64,000 nucleotides of DNA from positions 124,001 to 188,000 of the forward strand of contig CAUYUJ010000159.1 in assembly GCA_963575745.1 (NCBI GenBank), written 5' to 3'. A program made the position numbers and the translations under genes. This DNA comes from Prorocentrum cordatum. Lineage: Eukaryota. The notes under the pieces are model-generated. The model ran no database searches and had not been told where the DNA came from. It was given only the letters and a program-made list of their open reading frames with translations. Of the stretch, positions 5,216 through 48,771 are shown piece after piece (position 1 is the first letter of the stretch; each line of letters starts with the position of its first letter).

Positions 5216-5247
5216 CCCAGAGGTCTGAAAGGACTGTTTTTTAGTCC
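5216..5247 (+). repeat. Left terminal inverted repeat CCCAGAGGTCTGAAAGGACTGTTTTTTAGTCC
   Basis: 31/32 identical to the reverse complement of 20766-20797. Subterminal GGACT/AGTCCGG repeats follow to ~5320. Confidence 0.92.
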
Positions 5248-5524
5248 GGGTTTTATCTGGGATGTCGGGACTATTTTCTTAGTCCGGACAAAATGTTGTT
5301 TTTTTGTTTTTAGTCCGGACACACGTGCGATAGGGTGCACGTTGTCCGAAATGGAAATATTATACACAACAAGCGTTCACGTTTATGAACCGTTGGTTTC
5401 GTTGCGCGGCATCTCGTCTTTCCATGTTGTTGCACCAGTTGTGTCCGTTATGTTTGCAAAGGCCTCCTTCCAAGGGCATTTGCCTCTCGGGCATGGCACT
5501 GGTCCGTTGTTGTCTCGGGTCTTG

Positions 5525-5860
5525 GAGGGAGGAGGGAGGGGGAAGGGAGGAGGGAGGGAGGGAAGGAAGGAGGGAGGAGAGAGGGAGGAAGAGGGAGGGA
5601 GGGAGGGAGGGAGGGAGGGAGGGAGGGAGGGAGGGAGGGAGGGAGGGAGGGAGGAGGGAGGAGGAGGAGGAGGAGGAGGAGGAGGGAGGAGGAGGAGGAG
5701 GAGGAGGAGAGGGGGAGGAGGAGGAGGAGGAGGAGGAGGAGGAGGAGGAGGAGGGGGAGGAGGAGGAGGAGGAGGAGGAGGAGGAGGAGGAGGAGGAGGA
5801 GGAGGAGGAGGAGGAGGAGGAGGGGAGGAGGAGGATGAGGAGGAGGAGGAGGAGGGAGGG
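5525..5860. repeat. (GGGA)n/(GGA)n purine microsatellite
   Basis: Direct inspection. Confidence 0.95.
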
Positions 5861-6768
5861 ACGCACGCGCGCGGCGGCGCGCGCTGGCGGGGAGGGCCTC
5901 CAGGTGGACGCCGCGGTGGGGGCGGCGGGGGTGGCGGGGGCGGCGCGCGGACGGCGCTCGCACGCGCACCCCGTTCCCCGCTCGCTCCTCTCGACCTCCG
6001 CCCCCACCCCAGAGCCCGCCGCAGACGCCGATTCGTGCCGAGCCAAGGGCAAGGGGAGAAGGCACCGCAAAGCAGAGGAGCAGAGGAGGGATGAGGTGAC
6101 CAGACCAGGGGAGGGAGGAAAGAGAAGGGGGAGGAGACGGCCCCAGGACCACTAAGGAGCTCGGGAGGAAAGAGAAGGAGGAGGGGACGACAGCAGACCG
6201 ACAGGACCGACCAGGAGAGGGAGCAAAGGGGCAACGCAGGACGCAAGGCGACAAGGCGAGCGGGGAGGAAGAAGTGGCTCACTGTGGCACGTTGTTGTTG
6301 TTGTTGGTGGTGGTGGTGGTGGTGCTGTGTTATGTTTATGCGATTACACGTTTAAGCATCAACCTAGGACATCGATGCGTTTTGTTTCGGCAATTGCTTG
6401 TTGTGTTTTCTGATGGGCCGTCCTGGGGGCCCGAAGCCTCGAGCGAATTCCGATTATCCTCACAACCAGGGGCGATCACGATTATGATGCCGATGATGGT
6501 CATGCCGTTCAGCCAATCATGCTCTCTAAATCGAGCTCCTCAACGTCACCGTCATCTGCGGCTTCCGCCTCGCGGTCTAGAATGCACACAGGAGGTCCCG
6601 ACGTGTGTGAAACATACCAGTCCCAATACTTCAGACCACGATTCAGAGCTGCGAAACAAGCCTCGCGAACGGGGTGGCGAGTCGGCGGGCAGGTCACGCG
6701 CTCGGTCGTACGTAACTGTGTGTCCAGGGCCAGGTTCCAGGAGAGGCTGCCATTCCTCCTGGGGCTGC

Positions 6769-6810
<42 letters not shown>

Positions 6811-8266
6811 AACCGCCTTCAAGAAGTGAAACACCAGAAATTTGTCGATCCCCTTCTGCGCAAATCTCCGACACGTGTTGGCCATGTTTCTGAGGCCGAA
6901 CGCGACGAGGTTCGCGTCCGAGGGGGGGGGGGCGTGGAGGATGGGGGGACGGATAGGAGGAAGGACGAGGATAACGAGGAGAGGCGACGATCGAGATGGA
7001 GGAGTGGAGGAAGTAGAGCTAGAGAAAGAGATATGCGGGAGGGAGAGGGAGAGGGATAGCGAGGGACGTGGAGGACGGAGGATTGTGGGGGGAGAGTAGG
7101 ATGAAGAAGAGGAGCATGAGACGGAGGAGGATGATGAGGAGGAGGAAGAACAATATCCTCGTGAAGAGAAGGATCAACATGCTGAAGTGGAGGTGCGGTG
7201 ATCATCGAGGATGAGGGGGGCGAGGAGGAACGAGGAGTATGGAGGTGGATGGATGGGGAGGAGGACGACGAGGAGGAAGAGAAGGAGGAGGAGGAGGAGG
7301 AGGAGGAGGAGGAGGAGGCGGAGGAGGAGGAGGAGGAGGAGGAGTATGAGTAGGAGTAGGAGGAGGAGGAGGAGGATGAGGAGGAGGAGGGGGAGGAGGA
7401 GGAGGAGGAGGAGGAGGGGAGGAGGCAAGAGGAGGATTGTGACCGCCTTGTAGGCTGCATCCCAGGCGATTCGATGCATCCCAGGCCTGACGCCTCGCGA
7501 GCCATGACGCCCGAGGCGATCGCCTCGGGCGTCATGGCCGCTCTCCCCCAACGACCGATGTCGCCCGCATCGAGCCATGTATCGCGTCGGAATCGTCATC
7601 GCCATTACCGGACTGCGCCGACGTGCGGCTCACCGTTGCTCACCGAAAACGGTGAGCATCGGTGAGCCTCATCCTTCTCCCGATCCTCATCCTCGCCCTC
7701 ATCCTCCCCCCCCTCCTCCTCACTCGCACTATCATGTCATGAGACGCACATCCCGCCCGCCTCCCGTCCGCTAGGTGTCACTGCGCCCTGACAGATCCTG
7801 GATGCACCGTCGAGGTGCTCGAACCTGCACCGATTGAAACACGGCTGGCTGGCAAACGCGCCAGGGAGGGCGGTTATGCACGCGCTCGCGTCTGATGCGA
7901 GCGTGGGCGCCATCGAGCTGATCACGCGCGCCCACTTGAGCACCGTGCGCAACCTCCCTCCCAGACGCGGTTGCCCGCCAGCATTACCGATCGCATCTGC
8001 CCCGCTGCAGGTCGCACCCGCATGCGGTGGCGATGCTAACAGCAGCGGCCAACGGGAACGCGGTGCACTGGACGCAGGAGATGGCAGCAAAACAAAAACA
8101 TGGCAGGACTCGCTGCCCGTCCTCCAAAGCGCATGTTTCCACACGCGCGGCGGGGCCCACGACTGCTTCATATCCAGACGCTGTGTATTACAAGTGTGTA
8201 CTGTAACATTAATACTAATACTATATGCACTGCCGTCAACTGACGGCGCGCGCAACTTGCAGTCGC

Positions 8267-9618
8267 TCACGATGGACGGACAGCGGTCGCTACACGCGCA
8301 TCGGCAGACAGGAGGCGCTGAATCAGCTCCGCAAGCTTCAAACTAAACTCTGTAGGATATATATCGCCCAGTCTGAGACTATCACGGCCGCCGCTGCTCC
8401 CATGATCAGACTCATCATCGTCTACTGAAGGTCGGGATCGAAGGGGTCCGACTCTAGCCACCGCTTGTTCCTTAGCTTTGTACAACTCTAAAACCATACC
8501 CTCTGGCATCGTGGAGTATATCACCGTTGGCCTGAACGTCTCTGCACCCCAACCGCCCATCCACAGAAGCATGCGCACGGCGCGCACCTGCTCGAGAACG
8601 ATCTTGACAGAGTCGGCCTCGAAGAACGCACTGCGCAACGGCTGCTCAATCGTGACCACCACGCCCCTCACGTGCGCGAGAAACGCCAAGTACGACCTGG
8701 GATCTGCAAACGGAACCAGACACACCATCATCACCACGTTGACCTGCTACTCACCGAATGTGCACTGCCCGGAGCGCCATTCAGCGAGAGGCGTCAGCCG
8801 CTCACCGAAGTTCACCGCTGGCGGTGAGCTTCGGTGAGCCTCCGACTGGGCTCATGTACACAACTCACACTGGCCCGTGGTCCGACATGGTTTTTGATTT
8901 CTACTCGGGGATTGTTTCAAATTCTAGTTGGTAAAAACAAAAACACATGGCTGCTGGTAGCTACACATAAACTCAGGTGCTTTCCGAACCCCAGCTTACA
9001 CTACATGTGTCGCGTGAGTGGCCTCGACCGCCTGCGCCCTCGGTGCACCGCGCGGCGTGGTAGACGGTGAAAAAAGCACCGATCCGCTTGAGGCCACCGT
9101 GGCCACAAGGTAGAGGCAGTACAGCAGGCCAACCTGAACTGCGCCAAACTGGCACACCGCCCCCCCCCACGAAATCAATCCGTTGTCGAATCAAGTGTTT
9201 TATATTGGTCCGAGGCCCTCGACTGGGAATCCCACAGGGTTTTGCAACATCCAAATCCGAGGGTCCTGGAACGTTGAGGGGGTGCCACAGCTGTTCTACC
9301 CTCGAGAACCGCACAGCAGATGTCCTCATTCTCGGCACCATCCATGCGATCAAACGTAAATGCTCTGGCGCGCGCTCCCGAGATCATGCTTGCGGTGAAC
9401 CCCATGCCAGAGAAAACCTCCACGAACGCAGTGTCCCGTTCGATCTCAGAGATGCTTTCCAGAAGCAGCCGAATCGCACCCGCGAGCAGCGCAGGGCCGT
9501 CCCCTGCCAGCATATTTTCACCGATACCTCTCTCACGAAGAACTTGGGCCTTATCACGAGCCCATTGTGCTCCAGCTGCATGGTGGGGCATCGCCCCCTC
9601 CGCTGGCGAAAACATCAT
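8267..9618 (-). CDS. C5-cytosine DNA methyltransferase-like gene, multi-exon (exons ~9618-9310, 9133-~9066, 8696-8267); catalytic motif IV exon not resolved
   Basis: Motif I-like FVEVFSGMG; FTFDR..EDIC; GLLYCLYLV...VLFSP; motif VI-like VTIEQP..S; motif VIII-like WMGGWGAETFRPT; terminal YPTEF. GT-AG intron 9134-9309 joins in frame (EDICCA|VGLLY). Confidence 0.65.
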
Positions 9619-9638
9619 GGCGAAAAACAAGGCGCCCG

Positions 9639-12180
9639 CTAGCCGCGCCCTGCCGTGAGCACCAAGCATTCTCCGATTGGGAAGAACGGGCATACGGAAA
9701 GTAGAGCCTGAAGGTGAAACAGCCCGAAGACTCGAACCTCAAATGTCAGCCTGTGTGCGTACTTTGCGACGTCACGGAGCGAAGCGTTGAGGGTCTCGTC
9801 GATAAAGCAGTTGTACTGTTTGGGGCTCCCATGGACGTCCACCCTGGCCCGACCACCAGAAACATTGGGTGGGAGCTGAACGTGCCCAGATGATGATGCA
9901 AACGATGATGAGGATTAGGTTGACGATGATACTGATGATGAGGATGAGGAGGGGGATTATGTCCGAGGAGGAGATAGGGAATTATACTTACGTCGACATT
10001 CCCCCTCTTCACCACCCCCTATGCAGGTCGACGAAGACGACGACGACGACGACCTAGGGGGGGCCCAAGGTCGTCGTCGTTGTCGTCATCGTGTGGGGGT
10101 GTGGGTTTCAGATCCCGCCTGAGAAGCATATGCCCAGTTAGGTGATGCTTCGGGACGAAGCCAATCCCCACCAAACTGCAGCATCGCAGGTGGGTAGCAT
10201 ACGCCGATAACATTGCAAGCCTAGACTGAGCAGGAACAACGCAATGGTGTTGACGCATCCGGTGCAAAACCTGCTGTAGCGATTGTCCCGCATGCACCAA
10301 CCCAGGCCCAAAAAAAGCTGACCCACCATGCATATCCAATGTGTGCAGGGCGAACGGAAGCATATACCCGACCTCGGCGGCTTTCAGTGACATTGAACTG
10401 CCAGGGTGGTGTGGCTTCTGCGAGCCGCTTTTGATACGATCATTATGTGGGCCGTTTGCAACGCAACGATAAGCCGCCACCCGAGGCCAAATCACGCCTG
10501 CCCCTCCACCTGTCCTCCCACCCTTAATGAAACCACACGTCTTCGATCATCGAATCCGAAGAACACAACAGAAAAAAATGGGTCCTGCAATGTGTACCCC
10601 TTGCGCTGGCCGAACATCTTGGCCGTGAGGGCCCCAAGCCGTACTTCAGGGGGCACGTCAGTAGCTTGCTGCCAAAACAACAGATCACCTTGGAGCCTCC
10701 GAGAGCCCAGTTCGATAACCTGATCGAGATTTCCACCGAATTGCCAAGGATTTTTCAACACTGTCCGCCACATGCACGCACTGACATACCTCATGATCGG
10801 CCCGAAATAGAAACAGCGAAGGGAATCGATCGCGAGACTCCGGACTGGTGAGCACGACAACTCGGCCGTAAACAATGGACATCGGTGCACTACAGGATCC
10901 ATTACCTTCTTATCGTGGGACAATCGGGGCCTCCATAATGTCACCCAAACTGGTAGTTCTGTGGTTTCAAGCTGAAACGTGTCAACGAGGTACTCCGAAG
11001 GTTCCAGGCGGTCCCCCTCCCGAATCTCCACGCCGTTGACAACGGCCGACCCTATCGCCAGTCTGCCCCGAACCCCCTTGCCTCCTTTCACAAACGCTAG
11101 TACACGCAGCAGCTCGGTGCGGTGAGCCTGGCGTTCTAGCAGCACCTCCACCTCGCACCTAGCACAAGCCTCATGATATTCGTTTTCGATCCTCATTGGC
11201 CACTGCACGTCTGGGCCAAACTCGTCGTAATGAGAGTGTAAGTCGGCACCGCACATCGAACACATCATGCATGGATTGAACACCGCGTTCCACGCCTGAA
11301 GACCTAATGACTTGCTGTGCTCCCCCCAGTCCCCCTTGACCCATATAAGTGCGGCGGTGTACCTAAACTCTTTTGGCTCTGATAGCCAGTGGCCTTCTTC
11401 CCATGCCTTATTATCATGGCGAAACAAGGGTCGGCATCCACGCTGCATCGCCAGGAACTGCCACTTGGCATTAAGAAGGTGGGGGTAGATCGTGCGCCAC
11501 CCCTTGCAGCCACACTGGCACGAGTCGGACGACCTAGTTACCGATAGAAGGTGGCGTTTGCCACTGCAGAGGTTCACTACCCACATACCTAGCGTACTGT
11601 CGCTGCGGCCCGCAGCCGACGACATGTATGATACGCCGTCGAGGTAGAAGGCCAGGGGCACTGGCAATTGTTTACCAGCCGATATCGCACTGATAACTGC
11701 AGGATGGTTGGAATAGCACGGCAGATCAAGAACGCACTCTTCCCTATCTTCAGGCTCAGTGAGCAGCATGTCCAGAGTAGTTTGATCGGTGCGCAGCTCC
11801 TCATCCAACGATTCAAAAACAGCTGCCACTGGGGTAATCCTGATGGTCCGCCTGGGACGTCTGTTGAGGTTTACTGGCGTGTCTATGTTGAACATGAACG
11901 GTGCGTGTGGCAACACGTTTGATAAATGATGCTGATATTTCCCCGTCTGCTGGTTAGGTCCTACAGCATATTGTTGGAAATCTGCCCCTGGGGTCCCCGC
12001 AGCATGAGCCCAATGACACATCAGACAGAATTCTTTTGCCGAGAGTTTGCAAGTGGCGTACATCCTTATCATGAGCGTCAGTAACTCAGACCCCGCGTCT
12101 CTGGCACTCTGCGGAGTAGACGTGAATGCGCGGCCGCGGCCGCGCCCACATCGCAGTCTGGGCCGCGCCGCCCGCTTCAT
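9639..12180 (-). CDS. CACTA/EnSpm-like DDE transposase, 3 exons (12180-10585, ~10417-10119, 9843-9639; ~699 aa)
   Basis: Motifs in order: LAFYLDG, VVNL, CQCGCKGW, VKGDW, PCMMC, IDSLR..FG (D-x-LH-like), LKAAE, PKHH..H, HGSP...CFIDETLN. Proposed exons sum to 2100 nt. The GC-AG intron 9844-10118 is phase-compatible; the exon 2 acceptor is less certain. Confidence 0.8.
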
Positions 12181-13084
12181 CTGTAAACAGACCCCTCAAA
12201 GCGAGCAAGGCATCCCTTGGGCCAACTGCGTTTCTGGTCGAGGAGAGACCGATCAGCGGACACGACACATTGCACGACAGGGTCACGAATGCGAGCGGAA
12301 CGACGGGGGGGGGGGCCATGGTGCCAGTGTCCACCCGATTAATATGTTGCAAACATGTTCACTTTGTTGCCGCACACGCTCCCCCAGACTGATTAGCCGA
12401 ACCGAAACTGAAACTGAGGTAGTCACATGTTTCTGAGATCCGATCGTAGGGCTCTACGCTCCAGAAATGCATCGGTCCAGGAACGAGCACTGGTGGTCAC
12501 GCGTGATCCGCCTGGCATGCCGTGAGCCACCACGAACAAGCGCTAAGGCAAATGATGCAAACGCTAGGCATCTGCTCTTTAAGTCCTCCTCCCCGCACCG
12601 TGACCTTGATCCCCCCGTGTGCTCGTGCGTTACTTGGAGCTCAGTAGTTGAACTTGGCGTCGCATGACGGCCAGCTCGACAGATGCCTAGCAAAAAACCC
12701 GAGAGACGGCGTGCCTGCGCACAGACACACGGCACCGAGCGAGAGAGCTCTCGCGTTGAAATTGCCCCAAAGCTTGATCAGGCCTTCTACTGAGGCCTGT
12801 CCGCAACGAGTCGCTCCGAATATCTCTCAACCTCCCGCCGCGCGGACGAAATCTCAAGAAACCGTACCAAATCTCAAAATATTCTGAAAAATCTGACGGA
12901 TCTCAGGGCTCACCGGAGCTCACCGGTACTCACCGGTAATCGGTGAGGCGGTGAGGGGGGGGGCTCACCGGTCAAAACCGTGTGTTTTCACAGGTTTCGT
13001 GGGGGGCTCACCGGCTCACCGATGAGGCGGTGAGGGGGGGGGCTCACCGGTGCTCACCGGTAGCGGTGAGCCCTCATCCGCGCT

Positions 13085-13195
13085 GAGATTTTGAAAATCT
13101 GAGCCCCCGAACCGAGATTTTGAAAATCTGAACCCCCGAACCGAGATTTTTGAAAATCTGAGCCCCCGAACCGAGATTTTGAAAATCTGAGCACC
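13085..13195. repeat. Four tandem ~29-bp units GAGATTTTGAAAATCTGAGCCCCCGAACC
   Basis: Direct inspection; each unit contains the palindrome AGATTTT-G-AAAATCT. Confidence 0.85.
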
Positions 13196-13428
13196 CGCGT
13201 TGAACAAAAACACATCTCGGAATGAAATCGCTGCCCCCACCCCCATTTGCCCGCTGCTGGTGCGCCCTCCCGCCCCGCCTCCTGCCACATCCCCCCCTAT
13301 CATGCCCCTATCTTCCCTTCTCCTATCTTAAATGTGTCATTGCGAACAGGCATCAAGAACGAGATCGGCGCTGCATGCAACCAGCTAATGTATAGGATGA
13401 TGCAGCTGCATGCTGATCGCATCGCTGA

Positions 13429-16723
<3,295 letters not shown>

Positions 16724-17575: not shown

Positions 17576-19414
17576 TTAAATCTGAAACGCTCCAAGAAAA
17601 CCAGCTCTGATCGGCGAGCTCGGTGGAACTGCATGCTCGCCTGCGGGGCTGGGCGGGCACGGAGAAGGCGCCCGCCGCGGCGGCGTCGCCGCTGGCGGCG
17701 GCGCCTCGGGCGTCGGGGCCGCCTCTGGTGGCACGCGCGCAGCTGGCCTCTTACCCGCCAAGTCGGCAGTGGTCGCCGCCGCTGGTGTCTTGCTAACCGC
17801 CCCCGCCTCATCGGCCTCGTACTCGCTGACCTCGTCCTCTGGCTCGTTGTCGTCGTCCTCGTTGCCACCAGGACGCGAGGAGCGATCATCGTTATCATCA
17901 TCACCGTCACGATCCTCGCCCTCGTCAGCGCCTGCAGCGGCATCGGCCTCAGCTGCCGCCGCCGCTGGCCGCTTCAGGGCAGCAGCTGGCCGCTTCATCT
18001 TCCGATCCTGCTTCCTGTCCTCGCTCAGCCACTTGCGCTTGTTGTCCTCGATGCCATCCTTGTCGATGCTGTTGGCGACGAACAGCTTCGCCTGCTCGGT
18101 CATGAAGACCTTGGCCGCCTCGACGTCCGAGTAGCCCGTCAGCTGCACCCGCTGGCTGGACCCCTCCCACAAGGTCACCCACTGCTTGCCCGACCTGTGG
18201 TTGTTGACGATCTTGACCTTCACCTCGGTGTCGCCTTTCATGCCGTCCCACACCGCCGTCTTGGCGCCGCTCTCCGCGGCCGCTGCATGATCGGCAGCAT
18301 CAACAGCCACGCCAGGCACCTTCTCGCGAATGCAACACTCTCCGGCATCCCCCCCTCCCTCCCTCCCTCCCTCCCTCCACCTCATCCTCCTCATTCCCTC
18401 CACATCATCCGTCTTCCCTCATCCTCTATCCCCCGAGACCTCGTTCTTCCAAAACCTCATTCCCTCATCCTCTATCCCCCGATTTTGGGTGGGGGAGCGG
18501 GGTTGCATCCAGGAAGAACCGTCCACTCGAACCCGTCGGGCCAGATCGCGCGCCAGCCGTCGTCCACCTTCTTCATGGTGCCGTACTCGGGGACACTGAC
18601 GCCATCCTTGATGCGCCACGCCGACTTGAGAGACGCACTCGCTTTTGGCGATGCCAGCCCTTCCCTCCGCCTCGCGCCCCCAGTGACCCGACCACATGCT
18701 CCGCTGCGGAGGGCGCGGTGGAGCCGAGGGTGCGGGGCGAGAGAGGTAGGGTTGGCACCGCCAGAAACTTGTGCCCCGTAGCCTTCAGCTCTTTCTCGTA
18801 CCCCAGCCGCCAGCCGTCCTCCTCCGCGATGTGCTTCAGCCCCGTGGCCGTCGCCTGCAGCACCTTCGGCTGCTTGCGCCTCTTGGCGGCGGGCTCATCC
18901 TTGCCGTCCTGTGACGGGCGCCGTGCAAACATCTACTGGGGTGGTCGGGGTGGATTGGGCGGAGGACGGATGGTGAACTTTGTCGAACGGTATTCACGAG
19001 ATGTACACCCTCAGGCGCACACACACACGCGCGCGCATTCGCGCACGCCACCTCGGAGCTCACCGACGCTCACCGCTCGCGGTGAGTTTCGGTGAGCTCT
19101 GAGGTGGCATCACGCGCGCAATCCATGGTATCATGGATCGCGCGGTGCGCGCGCGCGCATGTGCGCCCGTCGTCGTCGTCGTCGTCATCGTCGTCGTCTT
19201 CGTCGTCGTCGTCGTCGTCGGCGGCGTCGGCGTCGTCGGCGCCGTCGCCGTCGTCGTCGTCGTCGTCGTCCTCGTCGTCGTCGTCGTCGTCGTCGTCGCG
19301 TCGGAAAGTTGCGATTATTGCCCTAAAGTCCGTAGTGTCGCCATCCAAGAAGGCCTTCTGGGCCCACGTTGGCACTGGTTGCCTAGCGCGACGACGACGA
19401 CGACGACGACGACG

Positions 19415-19448
<34 letters not shown>

Positions 19449-20073
19449 ACCGCTGCCTCGATAGCGCTTTCTTCGCGTGCCGCAGCATGGCCCGCGCCAT
19501 CTTGGCGCGATCCGTGGCCCAATCCTCCTGGGTGTCCGCCAACTTCCAGACGTGCTCCTTGCTCGCCGCGACCCGCAGGAAGACGTCCTGGGGCGCACAC
19601 TTGCCCAACTCCAGCTCACCGCGCATTCCGTCGAGCAGGGATGGGGCTCACCGAAGTTCACCGCCAGCGGTGAACTTCGGTGAGCCCCGCCCCCTGCCTG
19701 ACGGAATGAACGCGGAGGCTGTGTGGCTTTCGCATCTCCTCACCCTGACCCCTCCAACTCCTCCTACTGATCCGTCGGGTTCACCCCGTCATCCTCCGCC
19801 CTCGCCTTTCCTCCACCCTTCCCCGCTCGTCATGTCTCCTAATCCTCTGACGACTCCACCAGTATTCCACCGTACTCCCCCGTCCTCGCCCTCTCCCTCT
19901 CACACCTCCGCCACTCCGCATCCTCCCAACCCCCTCTCCTTGGCAGTCTTCTGCGACACGCCGCCCGTCTGGACGATGGGGCGGGTCTCGTTGATGAATG
20001 CGCTGTACTTCACCAGCGCGTCCTGCTGCATCTCGTCATCGAGCTCCGTAGTGTACTCTAACCTCGGCTGCCA

Positions 20074-20349: not shown

Positions 20350-20765
20350 GCCCCCTGTAGGCGCCAGGACCGCTCGCGAATAAACGAGCTGCGAATGAGG
20401 TGGAGGGGGGAGCAGGAGGAATAGGAGTAGACGCAGTATGGGAGAAATGAGAGGACCCGTGACGAAAATATGATCGTGGTGGAAGACGACGGATGGGAGG
20501 AGAAGGAAGGGACGATTACAGTATCATGATTAGCTCGGCATCGTTTCCGTGGTCGGTAAGAGACGAGGACGGATGAGGACGAGACAAATCATGCGGAGGA
20601 GGACGAGAACATAGAGGGGAGTCAAACAAACGAGATTGAGCACGACAGACTTCGCGCACGCCTTAAGTTCTAGCGTTTGCTATGTTGTTTTCTAGAAGTT
20701 GTAGGTCGGGACTATTTATATACATGGGGACTAAAAAAATAATCCGGAGTTTATGTTGTGTGTCG

Positions 20766-20797
20766 GGACTAAAAAATAGTCCTTTCAGACCTCTGGG
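20766..20797 (-). repeat. Right terminal inverted repeat
   Basis: ggactaaaaaatagtcctttcagacctctggg; subterminal gggacta repeats at ~20706-20750. Confidence 0.92.
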
Positions 20798-43869: not shown

Positions 43870-46800
43870 ATACCCACCCGCCGAGAGCGTCGTCCCACGA
43901 GCGCTCTACCTGAGCAAGCCTTGCAGCGTGGGGGGCCTCCGACTGGAGGCCCTCGATCTACCGATCAGAATCTGCCGAGCAGTGACATCAGAGCTAGACA
44001 GGGAACCACGCAGGGATTGGACAGTGGAGCGAGTGGAATCTAAGGCGAAAAGATAAGAAGGCAGGGCGTCGGAGGAAACCCGGGAAAATCGATGGGGGAG
44101 GAAGGAGTTCAGAGGATCAGGTCCATGCTCTTGAGGAAGAGCAGGAAGATGGTGACGAAGGGTAGGGAGAAGACTGTAGCAGGAAACGTCATGCAACATG
44201 TCATCACCACCAACATACTGACATCCAAATACGCATCTACCAGGGCCTTGTCTGTACCTCCTCGTAGTGTTCCAACTGTTACAAACAGTCTTCAGCAAGC
44301 TAACCCGCATGTACTCTGGAACCATGTCGGAGGATCGAAGAAAGAGGCGGATGGATGTGTCCAGCTCCATCTCGGAAGACAGCGGGAGCCACTTCTTGAA
44401 GCGCGGCGCCAGCACTCTCGAAACAGGCGCAGCACAGGAGTCAACGAAAATCATCTTGGCGAGACGACTCTGAATTTGTTTACGACGACAATCATGAGGA
44501 AGGCGAGAGTGGTAGTTCGATATCGAGTAATCCTCCATCAGTTGCACAAAAAAGCGAGTGCCTGAAAAAGGGGCTGCACATGTAGGCTGGCGCGAATTCG
44601 TCGGGTTCTCTGGCTGCATGAAACTCCTGGAGACATTCCTGGAATACCTCGGAGCAGGGGGCGACCCGCAGCCTGGCAGCGAGAGATGGCACCTGCAGCG
44701 ACGATGTCTGGACAGAGAAACCCAGCTCCTTCATCCTCGGAAACAGACCAGGCGGGATCGAGTGACGGGGAGCACACGTGCACAGCTGATGAGTCTCACG
44801 TTCAACCTGGAGAGCGGACTTGGTGGGGCGAAAGCCTTTGCTTAAATATGAAATAGCGGGCAGCACGTATCGGTTGTGCGCGCACGCACTCACGATGAAG
44901 CCTTCCCCTATTTTCTTGACGGCGCGCGCCCTGCGAATGAGCCTGGTGGCGGCTGCCCGCCAAGACAGCTCTGGGCCACGGTGGCCAAGAACAAAGCCGA
45001 GGTACTTGCCATGCAGCTGAATCTTGAAACTTCGCACTCGGATGCCATGCGCGCGGAACAGCTGAGGTGCATTAGTGAACAATCCAGGATTATGAAGGAT
45101 GATGACACACTTCGTGAGATTCAAGATCAGGCCCGGGGAGATCCCAAAGGCACAGATTGCTCGCGCCACGCAGCAGAGGTCTGCGATGGTGTCGCAGGCC
45201 GTCAGACAAAAATCATCGGCGAATGCAGAAACGATTTCTGGCATTTATGCAGGTCAGGCGAGATGCTGGAGAAGGGGATCCAGACAAAGAGCAAACATAA
45301 CACCTGAAAACGGACGTCCTTGTTTAACTCCTCTAAGGGCAGTGAACTCGTGGGCCCTGGACCCGCGAAATTGGACTTGACATACCATATTCTGATGCAA
45401 GATGGAGATAGCGATGACGATAAACGCGGGGAGATGGCACGCCCTCAACACTCTCAGGATCCAGGAATGCAAGGTCGAGGGGAAGGCCGCACGGACGTCG
45501 AAAAGGAAGCTGCCTGTGCGCTGGAAGCCGAAGACGGCGCCCCAGAGGAAGATGGAAATCGGTCTCGATTAGGAGGCCCATGATCCGCCCACCTGCGATG
45601 AATCCCCGCTGGGAACGGCGCCCTCGGTCGGCCAGCGCAGGACCAGTGGGCGCGGCTATCATTGCACCGACCAGCCTATTGTCTGTGTTGGACAACGCAA
45701 TCGGCCTGGAATCCCCAGGCGCCCCGAAGACTTGGTCGCTGCCCTCAGTGTCGCCCTTGGCCAAGAAGGCCAACGAAGCAAAGTTGAAGTCAGCGCTCGC
45801 TGGCCGCCCGGCGAGCACGCGCTCGTAGACTGCGAACAATGACTCGTGTGCGTCGGGGCCTGCAGCTCTCCAAGCGCTGTAACATAAACCATCTGGCCCA
45901 GGGGCCGAATCTTTTTTCCTGGGGAGGGGGCCCTGGAACTGGTCGAAGGTGAGTGCCCGAGGGAGTCGTTGATGAGTGGTATTGGTGTATTGATGAGGAC
46001 CGTCGGGGAGGAGAATGACACCTCTGCAGAAAGCCTTCGCCAGGAACAGGGCAGCCATGGCCAGCAGAGAAGACGCGGCCCCAGTGCTCTGTGAGCATGA
46101 GCGCACAGGTGTCGGGGTCCTCGATGGTCTGCCCTTGCGGACCGACGAGCCCCTTGAGAACGACAGAACAGTTCGCACTCCCCCATGCTTTGGCTAAACG
46201 CTTGACTCTCATAATATGGAAATATGCGCTGCTGTTTCCTGCTGCTGCTGCTTGCTGCCATTCACGTTCTTGCACAGAGGGCTCAGCCGTCATGAGGCTG
46301 CTGAGGTAAGTGTGGAACTGGGCCCAGCGTGACCAGCATTGTCCATCGACTGAATAAAACCGCCAAGCACGGGGCATGCATGCACATCAGACTGAACAGC
46401 GCGGCGAAGGGGCGCGCGATGACCCCGAGCGAGCTTCAGGCAACAGGCGATTGTTCCACACCTTGTAGCGGTTTTTGTAGAGAACATCTCGTGTTTTTTT
46501 TGAGCAGCGGCGACCATAAGACACTTCGCTACCTGAAGCTTCTCGGGTGGGTCCTCGCTAGAAGACTGGCCTTTGGAAAGGTCCTCGAATAACTTCGAGT
46601 AAGGCGGGCGCTTAGATGTCCCAGCCAGCAGATGCACGCCCTTGTCTGCCCCCCACGGCCTGCTCGAAAACAATACTGGCACATGGTCGGGGGGGGGGGC
46701 ATGTCGCATATTTCCCATGCAGTAGAGGACGCATGACACATATCGAAGATGTCGGCAGAGGGGGGGGGGGGGCGCTGTAGAAGCGGTCGAGCCTGGCAAA

Positions 46801-46975
46801 GGGCTTGGGCAGAGGCTGCATGATCACGCGTCGGCGCGTGCTTCTTCTCTTGCTCGTGCTCTGCAAACTCGGAAAAGATCGTGCGAAAGCAGACCGCGCG
46901 CCTAGCAGGCTGAAATCTGTCTGTCCCTTCGGTGGCATTAAATCGACATTCTCCTTCTCCATGGCAATTGAAGTC

Positions 46976-47013
<38 letters not shown>

Positions 47014-48771
47014 CGGTGGCGAGCTGATGGCCCAGAACCCTGGAGCGAATCCTCTGGAAGGGCAAACGAACATGGGGTTCAGGGAGCTCGGGGTCGATAT
47101 GAATGTTCACGATGTGTACCGCTCCTTTGGGGCCCCGAGGAGTAACTCTAGCGACGCCGCCAGGAACGACTTCCACAAGTTGGCGGGGGTCGAACTCGCC
47201 GAAGAACTTACGATTGATGAAAAAGAGCAGCCCACCAGCAATCGGACGAGCGCAGAACGACCCCAGGAGGTGATGAGTTTTGAACTCGCGCTGCAGATTC
47301 GCGAGGTCCCCAGGCGAACCATGAGTTTCCTGAAGGCAAACGACTTCGCGATTAAGAGCTAGATCGCGTAATCTGTGGAATTTATGTCGAGCCCGAACTT
47401 GATCAGCACGCAGGGAACCTATAAGAGCTCAAGTGTTCCACGTGGTAATCCGAAACGCATTTTCAGGAAGACGCGGAGAATATTGAGAGGGGGAGGGGCG
47501 AAAATCTCCGACGCCTCTGCAGACTGCTGATTGGAGGGCGGCTGCGACGCATGGAATGCATCTGAATTCTGGCTGCTGACTTGCAATGCAAAAGAGGAGG
47601 AGGGGGAAGGAACGCCGACGGAGCCCCAGCAGCCCCCACGCTGGCGGCAAAATTCTCTTCCGCGCGCAGGGAAGCGGAAGGAGGAGGGGGCGAGGACAGA
47701 GCAACAGAAGGTTGTTCAGAGCAGCAGCGCCATGAGGCCTCACATCAGAGGTTCTCGACATTGGCGATGGCCTCGGCCCGCTCCTTGGAGATCCCCCAGA
47801 AGTGGAGCGCGTCGTACTTTGGCTCGAACTTGAACGCGTCTAAGTCCGAGGAGGTCGCTTGGTACAACTCGAAAATGCCGTGCTCGGTGATGACCTGCAG
47901 CACGCCCCTGTGGCCGGTGACCCCAACTTTGTGGGCGGTGGGCCAGCGCTCGGACTTCGAGCTCCTCTTTGACGGTAGTGCAGATGGCGGACAGCGCGCG
48001 TTTTTTTTCTGCCGCACGTGCAGCGGCAGATCTCCACGAATACGAATAGGATGGAGAGACCCGTCACGAAAATCTCTCCATTGCATGCCAGCACCGTTGG
48101 CGCGGTGTTGAAACACGAGAGCGTCCACCATGTTCTTGAAGTGCAGCTTGTAGGTCTGACTGATGCCATGGAACTCGGCCGTGACCACTTCGTCGCGGAG
48201 CTCCTGCGGGTAGGCGGTCTGCATCTGTGACCAGTGCGCCTGCAGCGTATTGGCCAAGAGGGGGCGAGGGAACGTGCCCACGAACTTCACCGTGGGGTTG
48301 CCCATGTCATCGTCGTCCGCGTCGAGCCCTGCCACACGCCTTACTTTACCATCAGCTCCACGTTGACGATATATGCTGCCTGGCGATGAGCCGCTGCATG
48401 TACTCGCTGCCGAACTGCTATCTTCAAGGGACTTGATCTTGGCGCCCTACTGGCTGACGAGGTCGCGCACTTGTTGAACCCCGGACCCTTGTTGAGTGAG
48501 TTGGCCTTGCAACCTAGCGGCTGCAACTTGGATTTCTCCCGAGAGAGCAGACGTGATCTCCGTCTTCTGCTTATCGAGCATGGCTTGAAGTTGAAGGACC
48601 AGCTCTCCATTACCACCAGCGCCAGACCGCGCCATGGCACGAAGTGTGAAGGTGAGCAACAGAAGCTGCCAGGTTCCAGGAGCCTTGCCTGCCGCGGAAT
48701 AGCGGTATCCCTTCAAGCCAATGCGGGCACAGCCCGCTGTCAACATGGTATTGAGCCAAAATGGCTACGGA
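43870..48771 (-). mobile_element. Full-length but frameshifted L1/Tx1-like LINE headed by a spliced leader
   Basis: ORF1 remnants at 47745-48746. Endonuclease: RITTWN, LQETHG, VNIH, DFN, RLDRFY, DHVPV. RT: SAPGPDG, RPIALSNTD, QRGFI, GVKQGRPFSG..F, AFADD, LNLTKC, KYLGF. C-terminal CVFGC..D..H..C. Confidence 0.9.
48751..48771 (-). other. DinoSL copy (first 21 of 22 nt)
   Basis: ttgagccaaaatggctacgga is the reverse complement of TCCGTAGCCATTTTGGCTCAA; the final G is replaced by T. Confidence 0.95.

Follow-up and report, generated by a model that had tools for sequence, protein, structure and literature searches.

A C5-methyltransferase-like gene that has lost its catalytic cysteine loop adjoins a RAG1/Transib-like transposase gene in dinoflagellate DNA

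Introduction

Mobile elements carry genes for writers and erasers of DNA marks, such as the DNA methyltransferases (DNMTs) of dinoflagellate and charophyte retrotransposons, and both the chromatin and the DNA modification of dinoflagellates differ from those of other eukaryotes. A locus on contig CAUYUJ010000159.1 of Prorocentrum cordatum (assembly GCA_963575745.1, positions 124,001 to 188,000 of the forward strand; this whole stretch of 64,000 nucleotides (nt) is hereinafter the window, and all positions refer to it) raises the question of whether a cut-and-paste DNA transposon, too, can carry a gene of this kind. On the minus strand of the window, a gene resembling those of C5 cytosine methyltransferases (C5 MTases) starts directly behind the stop codon of a transposase gene, and a preliminary description, made from the sequence alone, proposed that a cut-and-paste element had captured it. 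The reading that we favor, with a confidence slightly above even, is that an intact gene for a C5-MTase-like protein of 290 amino acids (aa), with the catalytic loop deleted, lies beside the gene of a RAG1/Transib-like transposase, and that both are most likely cargo of a low-copy DNA transposon.

Layout of the locus and gene models

The two genes are arranged as the preliminary description had it: read directly from the minus strand, the transposase stop codon (TAG, 9641-9639) and the ATG of the MTase-like gene (9618-9616) are separated by 20 nt (9638-9619). The five motifs on which that description relied are all encoded on the same strand and in the order given, namely FVEVFSGMG (9426-9400), VLFSPS (9079-9062), IEQP (8650-8639), MGGWG (8560-8546) with RPT (8533-8525), and YPTEF (8359-8345). 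The three proposed exons (9618-8267) can indeed be spliced, through GT-AG introns, into an intact open reading frame (ORF) of 873 nt and 290 codons with no internal stops; the splice sites are inferred ones, chosen such that the spacing of the closest full-length relative, P0007, is preserved.

Exon 1 (9310..9618) runs from the ATG through the motif I-like FVEVFSGMG to an acidic end of strand 2 (FTFDRMD, 9360-9340) and further to a GT donor that was selected because it yields a spacing equal to that of P0007; the translation of 9615-9307 is 35% identical to residues 1-104 of this relative, and the exon 1 ORF alone matches the family profile described below at 6e-8. The putative intron 1 (9134..9309, 176 nt, GT..AG) likewise keeps the P0007 spacing across the join DICCA/VGLLY. 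Exon 2 (9000..9133) encodes VGLLYCLYLVATVASSGSVLFSPS followed by the seven residues TTPRGAP. The putative intron 2 (8697..8999, 303 nt, GTAAGC..CCCAG) contains a cluster of the palindromic sequence GCTCACCG at 8800-8839, and exon 3 (8267..8696), which matches the family profile at 2.6e-31, encodes the motif VI-like IEQP, MGGWG..RPT and YPTEF and ends with a TGA stop (8269-8267).

The protein family of the MTase-like gene

When 1.84 billion representative proteins were searched using phmmer with exon 3 alone as the query, 78 proteins were retrieved at E<=1e-3, eight of these at <=1e-10, with the best match at 2e-40 and 58% identity. Each of the 78 relatives represents a cluster at 50% identity, and many of the matches are exon-sized fragments. 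Given that a single exon suffices to recover this number of relatives, the quoted motifs go beyond chance. The proteins of this family are about 280-320 aa long, and the alignment of 14 full-length members includes ten invariant columns, among them G70, C128 (within PxC), R141, G148, N159, E185, P187, G218 and K223. The shared motifs are, in order, ExFxG, an Asp behind the following strand, PxCS(T)W after strand 4, an Arg, GD, an Asn, EQP after strand 5, G..G....KP(T) and, in a C-terminal helix, YPxxF. The spliced protein from the window belongs to this PxCSTW/EQP family (alignment A1) over the length of the profile, which it matches in two blocks, at positions 13-103 (1.2e-18) and 128-266 (2.6e-36).

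Only one member of the family, P0007, is named in the database, where it is attributed to Prorocentrum cordatum. When longer proteins were sought with exon 1 in a word-based search, none was retrieved, and a search of viral contigs with a single family member detected no relatives. Judging from these sequence comparisons, the gene belongs to an uncatalogued eukaryotic protein family that has no match in Pfam.

The neighboring transposase

The upstream neighbor was already apparent as a 567-aa ORF (10492-12195, minus strand) with 31 homologs, none of which contains a Pfam domain. The complete model consists of three exons (12180-10598, 10514-10119 and 9843-9639), encodes 727 aa without internal stops and aligns in one piece with the intronless ORF of a metagenomic relative (L004; residues 20-661 of 674, 36% identity). 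Exon 1 (10598..12180) starts with the ATG at 12180 and encodes LDGV (11643-11632), CQCGCKG (11520-11500), KGDW (11337-11326) and CMMC (a C-x2-C motif, within 11271-11257). It is followed by intron 1 (10597-10515, 83 nt, GT-AG), exon 2 (10119..10514), which encodes ..KAAEVG.. as well as ..PKHHLTGH.. with its H(3)H motif, an inferred GC-AG intron of 275 nt (10118-9844) and the last exon (9639..9843), which encodes ..VDVHGSPKQYNCFIDETLN.. and ends with the TAG stop. The ORF at 9642-9914 matches the C-terminal ends of the transposase ORFs in 31 of 80 metagenome loci (E<=1e-3), which identifies the TAG at 9641-9639 as the true stop of the transposase. The sequence KHHLTGH followed by FIDE, encoded in the last two exons, is common to the intronless relatives.

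In an alignment of 26 sequences, C-x-C-G-C, G-D-W-x-E and C268-x2-C271 are invariant, and the Asp of LDGV is nearly so. The AlphaFold2 (AF2) model of the transposase has a mean pLDDT of 88.6, and in the PDB it is matched best by chains of the RAG1 core (E 6.4e-4, prob 0.99, 459-540 aligned columns); the Transib and P-element transposases come lower in the list. In the portion of PMC12730594 considered here, CMCT-type DDE transposases (CACTA/EnSpm, Mirage, Chapaev and Transib/RAG1) are defined by a C(2)C and an H(3-4)H motif that follow the second Asp and precede the Glu, and this pattern is described for EnSpm, Plavaka and Transib. The transposase from the window shows this arrangement on an RNase H-like DDE core, with the catalytic residues assigned by inspection. 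In its predicted fold, the neighbor is thus a genuine DDE transposase of the RAG1/Transib-like type, as the preliminary description had assumed of the gene that ends at 9639-9641. The differences from RAG1 and Transib are as follows: the TM-scores are about 0.3, the identity is 10%, no Pfam family is matched, the candidate terminal inverted repeats (TIRs; see below) are not heptamer-like, and a 5-bp target site duplication (TSD) was not seen.

The public gene model of this transposase, P0080 (10019-12072, minus strand), starts 36 codons late and, because it continues across the second intron as far as a stop at 10019, misses the last exon; the relatives support the ATG at 12180 and the exon at 9843-9639 instead. 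We also considered P0080 as a paralog and rejected this, given that its differences fit the allele at positions 10260, 10330 and 11496 in sequencing run X1, so that it represents another allele of the same locus.

Do the two genes belong to one transposon?

With both genes on one strand and a gap of 20 nt, there is no room for a transposon end between them. In run X1, the MTase-like gene is connected to the tail of the transposase by joints on two diverged contigs (9135>9699 and 9438>9712), and the read depth over 8136-12140 exceeds the single-copy level by a few units. We also weighed an in-frame fusion of the two ORFs by way of the 273-nt joint 9438>9712 and discarded it, the ORFs being in different frames (23 nt offset).

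Both genes, together with several ORFs without family matches, are enclosed by a pair of inverted repeats that bounds 15.6 kb. The candidate left TIR (5216..5249, plus strand) is 34 nt long and is accompanied by subterminal copies of the TTTAGTCCGG type up to 5318; the candidate right TIR (20764..20797, minus strand) is identical to the left arm in 32 of 34 positions, with subterminal copies from 20726. Within the window, the subterminal motif TTTAGTCC(G/C)G is restricted to 5240-5318 and 20726-20773. A focused search for inverted repeats near the two genes yielded just the GCTCACCG motif and an 11-mer. The element might be the unit bounded by the 34-nt repeats at 5216 and 20797. Upstream of the transposase, two ORFs of 210 and 320 aa (13429..15027, minus strand) are located in one frame, next to a poly-Arg tract, with a single stop (14392-14394) between them. 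Neither has a Pfam match, and residues 199-241 of the second are 40% identical, over 43 residues, to an ORF located upstream of the transposase in L001, the closest metagenomic relative of the window transposase. This similarity hints at a multi-gene element, of which these ORFs may, by sequence, be a third gene.

A number of observations weigh against a shared element. The MTase-like gene was detected, by tblastn and by profile search, in none of the 80 metagenome loci with transposase relatives, which is a weak test because these loci are short, their transposases are only 26-47% identical, and the C-terminus is present in 31, among which the sequence extends downstream for at least 500 nt in 13 and at least 1000 nt in 4. 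The linkage in run X1 is weak evidence, with short sides (52 and 32 letters) and 80% likeness at the joints. The read depth in this run is at the single-copy level in the flanks (10.8-11.5) and a few units higher over 8136-12140 only, such that the locus is essentially single-copy, and the comparison of 7001-14500 against the window revealed no second copy of either gene. The flanks of the inverted repeats share only 2 bp (AG), the repeats start with CCCAG rather than CACTA, nothing ties them to this transposase, and none of the 80 metagenome loci contains a counterpart of the left terminal sequence. Finally, the CpG observed/expected ratio is about 1 in both the element and its flanks, with no contrast between them.

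Part of this evidence is also compatible with the best surviving alternative, namely that the MTase-like gene is a normal member of a dinoflagellate family of host genes, rather than mobile cargo, and just happens to have a transposase gene (or a domesticated one) as its neighbor within a one-directional array of genes. Apart from the negative result for the 80 loci and the single-copy depth, this alternative is favored by the presence of introns in both genes, by the many family members on contigs where no transposase was seen and by the many database members that start exactly at the exon 3 boundary (..RSY..), suggestive of intron conservation like that of host genes. On the other hand, the 20-nt gap implies either one element or one host unit, two diverged contigs bridge the genes, the inverted repeat pair encloses both, and the transposase retains all invariant residues of its family. 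We consider the host-gene scenario rather unlikely, albeit the strongest of the competing explanations. The membership of the MTase-like gene in a transposon is plausible although unproven, and its capture by a cut-and-paste element, as originally proposed, is not demonstrated by the distant transposase loci or by the linkage seen elsewhere.

Loss of the catalytic loop

The window copy differs from its relatives at what would be the active site. Profile positions 104-127, a stretch of 24 that contains the invariant Cys, Arg and Gly of GD, are replaced by the seven residues TTPRGAP; furthermore, the invariant Asn is changed to Thr and the Lys of KPT to Arg. Altogether, four of the ten invariant residues are absent (C128, R141, G148 and N159), and K223 is replaced by Arg. 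The family itself has the invariant Cys in PxCS(T)W, the putative counterpart of the motif IV Pro-Cys, which the window copy lacks. The preliminary description had been unable to find an exon for the P-x-C-S of motif IV, and rightly so: from 9320 to 8690, none of the three reading frames of the minus strand encodes P-x-C or C-[ST]-x-W, and therefore no hidden exon can supply the loop. The same loop-deleted letters recur ungapped on one contig from run X1 (record 4) and on another from the marine metagenome run X3 (record 19, 8872-9117); because they are identical in two other assemblies, the deletion is not an assembly slip.

As judged from the sequence, the loop that holds the nucleophilic Cys, together with the invariant Arg and Gly behind it, has been lost in frame from this copy, which is probably not an active methyltransferase. 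Self-methylation of the element, as had been envisaged, is accordingly unlikely to be performed by this protein, given that the loop is gone. The frame is otherwise intact, and the C-terminal 35 residues are nearly identical in P0002, the 58%-identical relative, which argues against a long neglect of the gene. The loop-deleted protein may still bind S-adenosylmethionine (SAM) or nucleic acid, could act as a non-catalytic partner or might be a relic at an early stage of decay.

These observations also bear on the possibility that the gene has become a pseudogene in decay, free of expression and selection, its open frame being a mere leftover. The replacement of 24 profile positions by seven residues and the loss of invariant positions are what such decay might look like, whereas a frame of 290 codons over three exons without stops or frameshifts, canonical splice sites, the retention of the other motifs and the near identity of the C-terminal residues with P0002, which suggests constraint in this branch, are not, and we consider a pseudogene unlikely. 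DNMT3L is a catalytically dead DNMT paralog that acts as a cofactor. The window protein is similar to DNMT3L in that a methyltransferase-fold protein would have lost catalytic residues and kept an open frame; a comparable role as the partner of another enzyme would be hypothetical.

Relationship to C5 methyltransferases

The main evidence that the family consists of C5-MTase-like proteins comes from the predicted fold of P0007. The AF2 model of this relative, built from the 14-member alignment, has a mean pLDDT of 74.8 and a pTM of 0.75, and its fold is closest to that of the catalytic (large) domain of C5 MTases. In the Foldseek search of the PDB, each of the matches listed is a C5 cytosine MTase or a DNMT-family chain (DNMT1, DIM2, MET1, ZMET2, DNMT2, DNMT3 and M.HaeIII), with DNMT1 as the best (E 1.2e-4, prob 1.0, TMq 0.33, about 200 columns). 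The VIA-align comparison with 48,161 chains is led by M.HhaI (Z 10.2, root-mean-square deviation 4.0, 201 residues aligned), and its best 10 chains are all C5 cytosine MTases or close kin. The structure search that had been suggested as a check thus places C5 MTases, among them M.HhaI, M.HaeIII, DNMT1, DNMT3 and DNMT2, at the top of both comparisons of the P0007 model.

The order of the conserved elements is that of C5 MTases as well: the SAM-binding glycine motif comes first, strand 4 is followed by a Pro-Cys loop, and strand 5 by a Glu. In the P0007 model, the invariant Cys and Glu occupy these places, which are those of motifs IV and VI, according to the secondary-structure string rather than a superposition. 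Motif I (FxGxG) is represented in the window by FVEVFSGMG; one of its Gly residues is invariant in the family, and it aligns with FAGIGG of Escherichia coli Dcm. The EQP after predicted strand 5 is invariant and corresponds to IEQP in the window, and its equivalence to the ENV of C5 MTases is based on the position in the predicted fold only. Among sequence comparisons, hhalign against Dcm placed ExFxG on FAGIGG and PxC on FPCQ in a single 80-column alignment, at a probability of 2.8%. The nearest named Atlas cluster has PF00145 in 35% of its members (score 0.87, 177/256 shared features), which we treat as a lead only.

Several results count against this assignment. The fold was predicted for a relative and not for the window protein itself, and short-chain dehydrogenases follow next in VIA-align, from Z 8.0 compared to 10.2 for the leader. 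No Pfam match was obtained at E<=1 for the three exon ORFs and the 14 full-length relatives, or at E<=0.1 for 10 further members. In particular, the proposed check against the PF00145 hidden Markov model came out negative for the exon ORFs and all 24 family members, and at the level of sequence, the proteins do not belong to PF00145. With hhalign against five C5 MTases, motif I alone aligns, at a probability of 5.7%, and both hhalign probabilities are below significance. A profile search of PDB sequences retrieved a generic SAM MTase alone, over motif I (E 0.009), and exon 3 alone gave chance matches to PDB sequences.

The family also differs from C5 MTases in its motifs, with PxC in place of their PC and EQP in place of ENV, and in the lack of significant sequence or profile similarity. 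Motif VIII (QxRxR) and motif X (GNxV) were not seen in the alignment of the 14 members. The stretch between KPT and YPxxF is short, with residues 255-288 of the model at a pLDDT below 50, and no target-recognition domain (TRD) was recognized. Thus, the proposed C5-MTase-like identity is supported by the predicted fold of P0007 and by the order of the motifs, and it is not supported by PF00145 or by profile-profile comparison, where the probability does not exceed 5.7%. Modeled in this manner, the family resembles the core of a C5 methyltransferase and may function as one. That it is instead an unrelated family of generic Rossmann-like proteins, with the motif order due to chance or model bias, is in keeping with these negative sequence results, with dehydrogenases at Z 7-8 and with TM-scores of just about 0.33, but the best 10 of 48,161 chains, all the Foldseek matches listed, the invariant Cys and Glu at the places of motifs IV and VI, and the Atlas lead make this very unlikely.

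Dinoflagellate origin and trans-splicing

The window contains an exact copy of a 21-nt sequence, which we take to be the dinoflagellate spliced leader (DinoSL), at 1732-1752 on the minus strand, directly before an ATG, and a copy with one mismatch at 48750-48770 on the same strand, 6 nt before an ATG; by chance, none would be expected in the window. DinoSL relics are a mark of retroposed dinoflagellate mRNAs, and both copies look like 5'-end relics of retroposed genes. These relics, the GC-AG intron and the relative P0007 all fit with the window being dinoflagellate nuclear DNA. The database labels the gene model P0080 as Pyramimonas sp., a green alga, in conflict with the DinoSL relics. Segments of 6000-14000 with 0-3 differences are present on contigs from three marine or unspecified metagenome runs, and therefore the organism or a close relative occurs in environmental samples.

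Given the DinoSL relics, spliced-leader (SL) trans-splicing is biologically possible, and the tight spacing of the two genes had been taken to suggest a polycistronic pre-mRNA resolved in this way, with the SL added between 9638 and 9619. The 20-nt spacer (9619..9638, minus strand), as read directly, contains no AG dinucleotide, and so a canonical SL acceptor cannot lie within it. The nearest AGs are at 9640-9639, within the stop codon, and at 9651-9650, followed by G, within the transposase coding sequence. If the two genes were co-transcribed and either of these acceptors were used, one pre-mRNA molecule would yield the transposase mRNA or the MTase-like mRNA, not both.

Other sequence features of the window

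The 8-mer CGGTGAGC/GCTCACCG forms clusters, often as short palindromes, with 32 copies compared to 4 expected. The clusters (7628-7667, 8800-8839, 12908-13071, 15078-15199, 19058-19097 and 19614-19685) are intergenic or fall within intron 2 of the MTase-like gene, and they could be subterminal repeats, a family of small hairpin repeats or a processing signal. Long low-complexity tracts of the GAG/GGA/GAT type are present at 5400-7600, 9900-10080 and 15480-15700; these tracts draw thousands-fold depth from unrelated contigs, and those of the GAG/GGA type swamped the generic inverted repeat search.

Comparison with known systems

The LINE and DIRS retrotransposons of Symbiodinium, SymbioLINE-Dnmt and SymbioDIRS-Dnmt3, carry DNMTs according to the portion of PMC5890265 considered here, in agreement with the statement in the preliminary description that dinoflagellate retrotransposons can contain C5 MTases; the same portion mentions DNA transposons with a DNMT in marine viruses. 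As in these Symbiodinium elements, a mobile element in a dinoflagellate-type genome adjoins, or carries, a gene of the cytosine-MTase-like type. As described in that portion of the article, the Symbiodinium elements are retrotransposons, and their DNMTs were found by PF00145 and keep the key catalytic positions, whereas the window has a DDE element of the cut-and-paste type and a protein that is invisible to PF00145 and has lost the catalytic Cys. Among 60 ORFs of the window, no Pfam match to a reverse transcriptase or recombinase was detected, and PF00145 had no match either, so that there is no sign of a DNMT retrotransposon. The ORF at 46529-47428 (minus strand), far from the element, shows the only match of this kind, a weak similarity to Exo_endo_phos (E 1.2e-4, 22.4 bits, below the cut-off of 24.5) and may be the endonuclease of a LINE-like element.

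A second parallel comes from fungal DNA transposons (Kyakuja, Dileera, Zisupton, Plavaka, EnSpm and others), which, in the portion of PMC12730594 considered here, carry genes for TET/JBP dioxygenases, with SET genes in other elements. Common to both is that an enzyme that modifies DNA bases is encoded by a separate accessory gene of a cut-and-paste element. The fungal elements, as that portion describes them, have a 5mC oxidase as cargo, are multi-copy and possess proven TIRs and TSDs, whereas the element in the window would carry methyltransferase-like cargo at a low copy number, between unproven ends. Fusions of transposons with chromatin domains are listed in the portion of 10.1101/2021.11.30.470311 considered here, none of them with a DNMT. 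Among the articles listed in the literature searches, none describes a cut-and-paste transposon of cellular eukaryotes that carries a C5-MTase-like gene, and none describes the present family, which is not proof of absence.

Implications

The locus would add to a known theme, that of a mobile element with an epigenetic-enzyme-like passenger, and it involves a family that domain databases miss. A bolder scenario, which we regard as quite unlikely and mention as speculation, would have a minimal, TRD-less family of the C5 MTase fold, invisible to Pfam, as the second cistron of RAG1/Transib-like transposons in dinoflagellates, with both genes expressed from the transposase pre-mRNA by SL trans-splicing at an AG in the region of the transposase stop; intact members would mark DNA, and loop-deleted ones would protect the element as decoys or non-catalytic partners. 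The probable catalytic death of the window copy limits what this locus can show in this respect. If the reading that we favor is correct, the pattern of mobile carriers would reach a new class of elements, given a methyltransferase-like passenger in a cut-and-paste element. Whether the gene is cargo or not, it belongs to a sizeable family with a C5-MTase-like predicted fold and with invariant Cys and Glu that standard domain searches miss, and that surveys of DNMTs based on PF00145 would overlook.

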